From: an uncultured Eubacteriales bacterium
GTDB taxonomy: Bacteria > Bacillota > Clostridia > TANB77 > CAG-508
Direction: 5' to 3'
DNA length: 36,015 nucleotides
Assembly: GCA_902488785.1 (NCBI GenBank)
Contig: CABTXJ010000001.1
Location: 1 to 36,015, forward strand
The notes beneath the pieces are model-generated. The model saw only the letters and a list, made by a program, of their open reading frames with translations, had not been told where the DNA came from and did no database searches. The position numbers and the translations under genes were made by a program. Below are positions 22,478 to 23,121 of the stretch, piece after piece. Positions within the stretch are counted from its first letter, which is position 1; each line of letters starts with the position of its first letter.

Positions 22478-23067
22478 TTTGATATTTCTTCTCCTTCTTT
22501 TTGTCTAATTGTTGTTTTTAAAAATTCTAATAATTCATTATTTTTTAATTCTTTTACATTATTACCGCATCTTTCTATCATCTCCTTTACAATTTTTATA
22601 TTTTCTTCTAATTTAATTTTTTCTTTAATTAGATTTTCATCATTTTTTATACTCTTATAACTATTTCCTTTGTTTTTATGAACTTTTTCATCAATTTTGG
22701 TATATATTATTATATAGAATGCTTTTGAAGAAGATTTTGATACTTTAATTAAACTTTTTAAATATTTTATATACTCATTTGCAAGTAAATTTGTATTATA
22801 TGTATCATATATATTTTTATCATCATTTTCTTCAATATTTTTAATTATTTTAGATATATTTTGCTTTATACTTCTACAAATTATTTCAAATTTAAAATCA
22901 CATGTTCTAAGCATAGAGCTATATGATTCAATTATAGATGCTTTTTCTAATTTGCTTTTTAATTCATAATTTATTGGAAATATTCTAAGTACTTTAAAAA
23001 CTTTATCTTTTGTACAATAACTTTCATTACCAATTTCAGTTATTTCAATCCATTTTTTTGTATTTAT
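22465..23067 (-). CDS. VirB4 N-terminal-domain-like protein (start proposed at ATA 23067; track start ATG 23094 lies inside the -10 box)
   Basis: WIEITEIGNESYCTKDKVFKVLRIFPINYELKSKLEKASIIESYSSMLRTCDFKFEIICRS resembles the extreme N-terminus of the ~800-aa Gram-positive VirB4 proteins (recalled from Tn916 Orf16-type sequences). GGAGG 23077-23073 lies 5 nt before ATA 23067-23065. Confidence 0.5.
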   Translation of the reverse strand: MNTKKWIEITEIGNESYCTKDKVFKVLRIFPINYELKSKLEKASIIESYSSMLRTCDFKFEIICRSIKQNISKIIKNIEENDDKNIYDTYNTNLLANEYIKYLKSLIKVSKSSSKAFYIIIYTKIDEKVHKNKGNSYKSIKNDENLIKEKIKLEENIKIVKEMIERCGNNVKELKNNELLEFLKTTIRQKEGEEISNWNY

Positions 23068-23092
23068 GTTTTCCTCCTTTTTTTGTGAAAGC

Positions 23093-23121
23093 ATTATAGA
23101 GTAATTTCAAATATTTGTCAA
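23093..23121 (-). promoter_or_regulatory. Perfect consensus sigma-A promoter of T4SS module B
   Basis: On the minus strand, TTGACA (23121-23116), a 17-nt spacer and TATAAT (23098-23093). Confidence 0.75.

Follow-up and report, generated by a model that had tools for sequence, protein, structure and literature searches.

An ATA codon behind a consensus promoter and an extended Shine-Dalgarno sequence as the probable start of a TraC-like secretion gene in gut Clostridia

The 36,015-nt stretch of contig CABTXJ010000001.1 analysed here (the window, to which all coordinates refer) is a chromosomal origin region of ~24% GC, containing dnaA, dnaN, recF, gyrB and a GC-skew switch. On its minus strand it carries a TraC-like gene, which appears to encode the N-terminal-domain protein of a split VirB4 ATPase of a type IV secretion system (T4SS) and is annotated from an ATG codon. 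Comparison with related loci indicates that this gene very probably starts at an ATA codon, located behind a consensus promoter and an extended Shine-Dalgarno sequence (SD), and that it is the first gene of a two-gene split-VirB4 operon. Bacteria very rarely have conserved AUA starts, and the demonstration of such starts in a Firmicute is recent.

The minus strand across the start region reads gcTTGACAaatatttgaaattactcTATAATGctttcacaaaaaaaGGAGGaaaacATAaatacaaaaaaatgg. The initial annotation of the window had described a TTGACA-17-TATAAT promoter with an ATG inside its -10 box, followed by GGAGG and an ATA, and had proposed that the promoter was improbable by chance, that it was located in an intergenic gap and that the next in-frame ATG came about 60 codons into the protein. 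All of these elements were found where it had placed them on the minus strand (Table 1), and the three proposals were borne out by the counts given below. The annotated ATG is composed of the final AT of the -10 box plus a G, and no GGAG-like motif lies upstream of it. The stop-to-stop open reading frame (ORF) opens at 23106, past a TGA (23109-23107), and its sole ATG, GTG or TTG ahead of Met61 (numbering of the 209-aa product) is the one in the -10 box; between the predicted 5' end of the transcript and the conserved protein no canonical start would thus be available. The SD AAAGGAGG has a duplex energy of -12.2 kcal/mol and stands at a spacing of 5 nt from an AUH codon (AUA, AUU or AUC; ATH in DNA). 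This spacing is normal here, since the housekeeping genes of the window place their ATG 4-5 nt past GGAGG, and nearly every gene of the window has an SD. The predicted leader (23086-23068) and the early coding region are unstructured (-0.8 kcal/mol).

The promoter shows both sigma-70/sigma-A hexamers with a 12/12 match and a spacing of exactly 17 nt (17 +/- 1 nt being usual), and it is conserved beyond the window. Perfect TTGACA-N17-TATAAT sequences occur twice on the two strands of the 36 kb, when 0.07 were expected from dinucleotide-preserving shuffles, and none of 100 shuffles contained two or more. The other copy is located at 15038-15066 on the plus strand, ahead of a G5-domain gene (SD GGAGG, ATG 15094), and diverges from the promoter of another ATA-started gene, at 14756. 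The promoter of the TraC-like gene sits in a 193-nt gap past an M20-peptidase gene, whose intrinsic terminator, a stem-loop with a U7 tract, has a stability of -15.2 kcal/mol (z = -4.8) that was reached by 0 of 200 shuffles. This terminator shields the TraC-like promoter from read-through.

The gene order gyrB, GNAT, M20, TraC-like, VirB4, three small ORFs and gyrA was found in near-identical contigs, L002 (95% identity) and L001 (69% identity); no other orthologs of 70-95% identity were found in the protein database. L001 is the informative one, with 44% divergence from the window at synonymous sites (pS = 0.44 over the gene), unalignable DNA upstream of the -35 box and 7 of the 17 positions of the promoter spacer changed. 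Both hexamers are nevertheless identical to those of the window (12/12) with the 17-nt spacing kept, and the leader, SD and ATA, CAAAAAAAGGAGGAAAACATAAATACAAA, are identical at 29 of 29 positions. The base after TATAAT in L001 is an A, so that the codon there is ATA and the ATG is absent. The promoter, leader, SD and ATA are thus conserved and the ATG is not. The SD AAAGGAGG and the ATA are invariant in L001-L008. At the place of the window terminator L001 has a hairpin with a U6 tract (-19.6 kcal/mol) of unrelated sequence. With 9 codons, the interval from the ATG to the ATA is too short for coding and non-coding substitution to be told apart in a comparison of L001 with the window.

When species-representative genomes were scanned, at least 361 relatives with a TraC-like gene were found. 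The 80 best of these (35-43% identity) were retrieved for comparison; they are all metagenome-assembled genomes (MAGs) of low-GC gut Clostridia. The codon positioned by the SD was counted in 75 distinct start regions, and the promoter in 76 loci. The SD-positioned in-frame codon was ATA in 48 start regions, ATT in four and ATC in one (53 ATH); TTG in 11, ATG in six and GTG in one (18 NTG); and unclear in four. A start-type codon, ATH or NTG, was present 4-10 nt past the SD in 71 of the 75, and the background of in-frame ATH codons at equal spacing past internal GGAGG motifs was 6%. The family SD, GGAGGTGA, is found 7-9 nt from the start codon. In 20 of the 53 ATH loci an in-frame stop lies in or past the SD, often as the TGA of this sequence, which rules out an upstream start in those loci, and 34 ATH loci have no canonical start ahead of the invariant PINY motif. 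Many distant loci have near their 5' end a single in-frame canonical codon, the GTG that forms part of the SD core GGAGGTG(A); in others the frame of this core differs, and it supplies an in-frame TGA. Of the four unclear cases, three (L030, L039 and L080) contain SD-N8-ATA AAA one base out of frame with the PINY ORF, beside long A-runs, and could reflect homopolymer assembly errors or genuine frameshifts.

TTGACA followed at exactly 17 nt by TAAAAT or a close variant (score 11/12) was found in 67 of the 76 loci, the -10 variants at this exact distance being TAAAAT, TAGAAT and TATGAT. The distance from promoter to SD is 9-19 nt (mode 12) in most distant loci, with leaders of ~20 nt, and canonical codons located further upstream would therefore fall outside the mRNA. 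The initial annotation had taken the SD-ATA as the initiation site and the ATG as a part of the -10 box, and had suggested looking for the same arrangement in homologous loci. Its occurrence in L001 and in 53 of 75 distant start regions, all with ATH codons, supports that assignment.

The annotated ATG could be the true start if the mRNA came from another promoter or from read-through, with TTGACA-17-TATAAT being incidental or secondary. Public databases do carry the 209-aa product, beginning MLSQKK (N-terminus MLSQKKEENINTK, compared with (f)MNTKKWIEITEIGNESY predicted from the ATA), the ORF is open from this ATG and no other canonical start precedes Met61; but a strong terminator is located upstream, and the ATG lacks an SD, unlike nearly every gene of the window. 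The comparative evidence makes this explanation very unlikely, given that the ATG is absent in L001 despite the conserved promoter, that in-frame stops part the promoter from the coding region in 20 distant loci, and that throughout the clade the promoter is conserved and its distance to the SD is short and fixed. A leaderless mRNA was considered and rejected, because the ATG overlaps the -10 hexamer, has no -10-like hexamer 6-9 nt upstream and is unconserved.

It is clearly improbable that the SD-ATA is coincidental and that translation begins without use of the SD or at a near-cognate codon further downstream, such as ATT 23049-23047 or ATA 23043-23041. These downstream ATH codons are at least 23 nt from the SD, while in 71 of 75 start regions a start-type codon follows the SD at 4-10 nt, and ATG and ATA replace each other at the same homologous codon in the VirB4 ATPase and VirB6-like genes. 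For the VirB4 gene this codon reads ATG GAA AAT TTT in two loci (L025 and L026) and ATA GAA AAT TTT/TAT in eight. What speaks for a downstream start is that the sequence is AT-rich and offers several more ATH codons in frame, that the residues ahead of a conserved Trp are variable, and that some database homologues begin past this Trp.

Table 1. Coordinates of the TraC-like start region, the split VirB4 genes and the other ATA-started genes of the window.
Feature	Position	Strand	Remarks
-35 hexamer TTGACA	23121-23116	minus	Identical in L001, L002 and ~70 distant loci
-10 hexamer TATAAT	23098-23093	minus	17 nt past -35; identical in L001 and L002
Annotated ATG (209-aa product)	23094-23092	minus	Overlaps -10 box, without SD; judged not to be a start
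Predicted transcription start	23084-23087, likeliest A23086	minus	7 nt past -10 box; predicted from promoter geometry
Shine-Dalgarno AAAGGAGG	23080-23073, core GGAGG 23077-23073	minus	8 nt of contiguous complementarity, Firmicute-type anti-SD
ATA, proposed initiation codon	23067-23065	minus	In frame, 5 nt past GGAGG
Intrinsic terminator of M20-peptidase gene	23214..23249	minus	Stem-loop + U7; -15.2 kcal/mol, z = -4.8
TraC-like protein, probable N-terminal-domain part of split VirB4 ATPase	22465..23067	minus	200 codons from ATA; stop TAA 22467-22465
VirB4 ATPase part, 596 aa	20687..22477	minus	Conserved TTG start; 13-nt overlap with end of TraC-like gene
Secreted protein, 242 aa	14028..14756	minus	ATA start; GGAGG 14767-14763
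T4SS-pilin-like protein, 124 aa	10606..10980	minus	ATA start; GGAGG 10993-10989, 8 nt spacing
TrbL/VirB6-like protein, 283 aa	9742..10593	minus	ATA start; GGAGG 10603-10599, 5 nt spacing

The identity of the small protein was taken from its NCBIfam match and from a precomputed match to PF26593. It aligned with positions 96-289 of VirB4_plasma NF045975 (E = 2.5e-7, 28.8 bits, far under the 590-bit cut-off), and its family has a weak precomputed match to PF26593 TraC-like, which was absent from the direct Pfam scan; the latter scan of the 209-aa protein gave just a chance JAKMIP match. The 596-aa protein encoded next to it aligned with positions 186-732 of NF045971 (CD1110-family VirB4), with 313.5 bits against a cut-off of 325, and with PF19044 (P-loop_TraG) above the cut-off, with 62 bits. 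Judged by these matches, the large protein appears clearly homologous to VirB4 families, while the scores against the NCBIfam profiles stay under the equivalog thresholds. The overlap of the TTG start of the ATPase gene with the end of the TraC-like gene, together with an in-frame TAA directly ahead of this TTG in L001, suggests that the ATPase gene is translationally coupled to the TraC-like gene. An ATC at 22483 was rejected as an alternative ATPase start, since L001 has an in-frame TAA there and keeps the TTG.

A VirB4 divided between two ORFs with a 13-nt overlap, the first of them without a canonical start served by an SD, might be taken for a frameshifted pseudogene with a lost start, no longer expressed as protein and left by a decaying integrated conjugative element. 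This is extremely unlikely in view of the conservation of the pair. The split is kept in ~80 species-level genomes, beside gyrB in 63 of 80 loci, which also led us to reject a fresh frameshift as its cause. The homologues of the small protein are free-standing, with ~185 aa and 29 invariant residues in an 18-sequence alignment, so that the split can be regarded as a stable two-gene arrangement. The ratio of nonsynonymous to synonymous substitution rates (dN/dS) of the TraC-like gene is 0.30 against L001 and 0.18 against L002, which corresponds to purifying selection, and there is conservation also of the promoter, of the SD and of where the start lies.

The use of ATH codons is concentrated in particular genes. 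The gyrB gene lies ~2.6 kb upstream of the TraC-like gene in 63 of 80 loci, with recF beyond, and because this neighbourhood is kept the secretion genes appear fixed in the chromosome across the clade. SD-anchored starts are ATG for gyrB in 57 of 64 loci and for recF in 33 of 47; in the TraC-like and VirB4 families ATA and ATT predominate. When strong SDs near an ORF boundary were counted, the two ATPase families had 85 non-canonical and 26 canonical codons, and all other families 9 and 112, respectively (Fisher nominal p = 4e-29, with loci that are phylogenetically non-independent). Among the nine exceptions, five are ATA or ATT codons directly ahead of a real ATG or TTG, and three are T4SS-associated genes of the window itself. 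A genome-wide relaxation of start-codon choice was rejected, as the neighbouring housekeeping genes use ATG. The non-AUG starts also have the stronger SDs: across the clade, those of T4SS genes average 7.9 nt and -13.9 kcal/mol compared with 5.7 nt and -9.7 kcal/mol for the ATG-started gyrB and recF, and within the TraC-like family the values are -15.6 kcal/mol for non-AUG loci and -12.4 kcal/mol for loci with canonical starts (p = 0.001).

These data bear on the possibility that translation does start at the ATA but with good efficiency, a clade-specific adaptation of the initiator tRNA, IF3 or ribosome making AUA and AUU efficient and leaving codon choice to nearly neutral drift under AT pressure. 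ATH starts are indeed very frequent in the T4SS ATPase genes, ATG, ATA, ATT and TTG swap freely at the same position among relatives, and, given an optimised context, mRNAs with AUA and with AUG behaved alike in vitro (PMC5499595). The almost exclusive use of ATG by housekeeping neighbours in the same genomes speaks against neutrality, and the stronger SDs of non-AUG starts within one family are as expected if they compensate for a weak codon; an efficient AUA is thus regarded as unlikely. The window shows no special tRNA; the RNA genes detected in it are just a tRNA-Arg(CCT) (16063-16139, plus strand) and a small bacterial signal recognition particle (SRP) RNA (5911-6006, minus strand, 62.9 bits), both ordinary housekeeping RNAs; infC and the initiator tRNA of the source genome lie outside the window.

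With the ATA as a weak start, expression of the gene can be outlined as follows. The sigma-A/sigma-70 consensus promoter would fire ~7 nt past the -10 box, near A23086, giving an unstructured leader of ~19 nt from which the annotated ATG would be missing. Anchoring of the 30S subunit would be by the 8-nt SD AAAGGAGG, and initiator tRNA would start at the near-cognate AUA 5 nt downstream, producing 200 residues that begin (f)Met-Asn-Thr-Lys-Lys-Trp. The weak start codon would be offset by promoter strength and by the extended SD. The AUA would keep the output low and might make it respond to IF3 or growth state, and translational coupling could pass this output on to the overlapping TTG-started ATPase gene. 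In this scheme, where transcription starts, whether the AUA is used for initiation and whether it attenuates are points that we infer from the DNA. It may also be extended to the whole module: AUA/AUU initiation would be a selected trait of a chromosomally fixed T4SS across this clade of low-GC gut Clostridia, a start-codon regulon in which consensus promoters, short leaders, extended SDs and weak starts tie output to initiation fidelity (IF3, ppGpp, growth state). This extension is a tentative proposal that may well not hold.

Several points weigh against the ATA start and its proposed role. An in-frame ATA past a GGAGG is not improbable at one locus at 24% GC, for which reason the SD-ATA is significant through the comparative data only, and AAG GAG GAA AAC ATA can also be read as an ordinary K-E-E-N-I coding sequence. 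The case for the ATA start is a comparative one, and the MAG counts on which it draws are phylogenetically non-independent. The ORF is open from the ATG, and a minor longer isoform could be made from read-through transcripts. In the window the ATA is spaced 5 nt from the SD and 5 codons from the conserved Trp, compared with ~8 nt and 8-9 codons in the distant relatives, and we infer the positional homology of the two. Finally, AUA in E. coli yields just 1-2% of the AUG output.

Three further ORFs of the window have an ATA as the sole start served by an SD, and standard calls truncate or miss all three. The 242-aa secreted protein has, when read from its ATA, the signal peptide KALRKTIQILLIAMIFLSTINSTSYA|KE, with the hydrophobic core containing the first ATG; its ortholog in L089 reads GGAGGcatATTATT and is without a canonical start for 59 codons. 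The T4SS-pilin-like gene has no ATG, GTG or TTG in its first 70 codons, a signal peptide follows its ATA, and its distant homologues have ATG at this position. In the TrbL/VirB6-like gene the window has ATA-ENIIGILNGIISKLVNSID where homologues begin ATG-GSIIENLNSVFTKLFTSID; in the distant ones the ATG is as far from a conserved SID motif as the ATA is in the window, and the N-termini align. These genes belong to a second conserved block, composed of gyrA, G5 protein, VirD4, pilin, VirB6, DnaD-like and DnaI-like genes, in which the ATA-started genes flank the VirD4-like coupling protein.

Near oriC (window 9.7-23.1 kb), T4SS and replication genes are intermixed, with synteny kept clade-wide (L009-L094) in the orders recF-gyrB-(GNAT-M20)-TraC-like-VirB4-... 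and gyrA-G5 protein-VirD4-pilin-VirB6-DnaD-like-DnaI-like. Neither a relaxase nor an integrase was seen, and the apparatus looks like a domesticated or chromosomally fixed secretion or DNA-transfer system and not like a recent integrative conjugative element. It resembles the VirB4/TraC ATPase systems of Firmicutes and Mollicutes (CD1110, NF045971; Mbov_0397, NF045975), in that the small protein aligns with the N-terminal region of these profiles and the 596-aa protein with the remainder, and in that VirD4-like coupling, pilin-like and VirB6-like proteins are encoded nearby. It differs from them in that the ATPase is split in two genes that score under the equivalog cut-offs, and in its chromosomal location among replication genes near oriC, with no recognisable mobile element or relaxase seen in the window.

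An AUH start with an extended SD is a known mechanism. In S. aureus, extended SDs were shown experimentally to direct initiation at AUA in infC, ccpN and citZ and at AUU in cvfC1, and AUA/AUU reporters gave ~10%, and up to 30%, of the AUG output (PMC13009471). The TraC-like gene shares with them the Firmicute-type setting, an extended SD near the start, a conserved AUH codon, a start missed or misplaced in annotation and a proposed attenuation (PMC13009471). Unlike the S. aureus cases, which are regulators or metabolic genes, it belongs to a secretion system and is known from sequence comparison, several genes of one module are involved across a whole clade, and a very short leader lies directly behind a consensus promoter. 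In E. coli, infC, which encodes IF3, is autoregulated via its AUU start, IF3 discriminating against AUU, AUC and AUA (PMC5499595; PMC9723500). Nutrient limitation and ppGpp affect non-AUG starts in particular. The near-cognate AUH start described here would likewise be expected to be limited by IF3, with possible growth-state-dependent expression; unlike that of infC, its product has no role in translation, and any IF3 dependence would be one-way sensing, not feedback.

No report on non-canonical starts of T4SS or conjugation genes, or on ATA/ATT starts in gene prediction from MAGs, was found in the literature searched. Relative to that literature, what is new is the concentration of several such starts in one secretion module and their conservation over a large clade beside ATG-started housekeeping genes. 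AUH starts in one module beside ATG-started housekeeping genes suggest translational attenuation as a design principle of the secretion apparatus. The finding also matters for annotation: the public protein starts inside the -10 box, and the L001 ortholog was called from the TTG of the -35 box (L001 4314). In dozens of distant loci the GTG in GGAGGTG would, from the sequence, be the sole choice for a caller restricted to ATG, GTG and TTG. From gene finders restricted in this way, wrong N-termini, including lost signal peptides, are to be expected for a set of secretion genes in many gut MAGs, and if the regulon proposal is true, standard callers systematically mis-start or miss such genes. As a method, SD-to-codon geometry conserved across frames can reveal non-canonical starts from sequence.

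Some minor features were observed in the same loci. Most distant loci (L009-L088; for example L028, L036, L039 and L074) have, ~20-45 nt upstream of the -35 box, a conserved direct repeat, aTGTCGAAwwwTGTCGAtgaaaagttc, made of two TGTCGA/TGTCAA units ~11 nt apart and abutting the -35 box; neither the window nor L001 or L002 has it. From its sequence, this repeat looks like a transcription-factor operator. The 5' untranslated region of the 242-aa gene contains a hairpin (14804-14826, minus strand), between a TTGATA-17-TAAAAT promoter and the SD, which is conserved with compensatory changes (gaaatcc...ggatttc in the window and gaaaacc...gggtttc in L089, at ~3073-3099) and is also present in L090. 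Directly past VirB4, 58 distant loci encode a ParA/MinD-like P-loop protein of ~365 aa, whose N-terminus, MKIITAIGN...EGILEVL, resembles by eye that of a 274-aa ORF of the window (19866-20690, minus strand), MKIITAFAD...EGILDML; the latter protein is shorter than this family and was not clustered with it.

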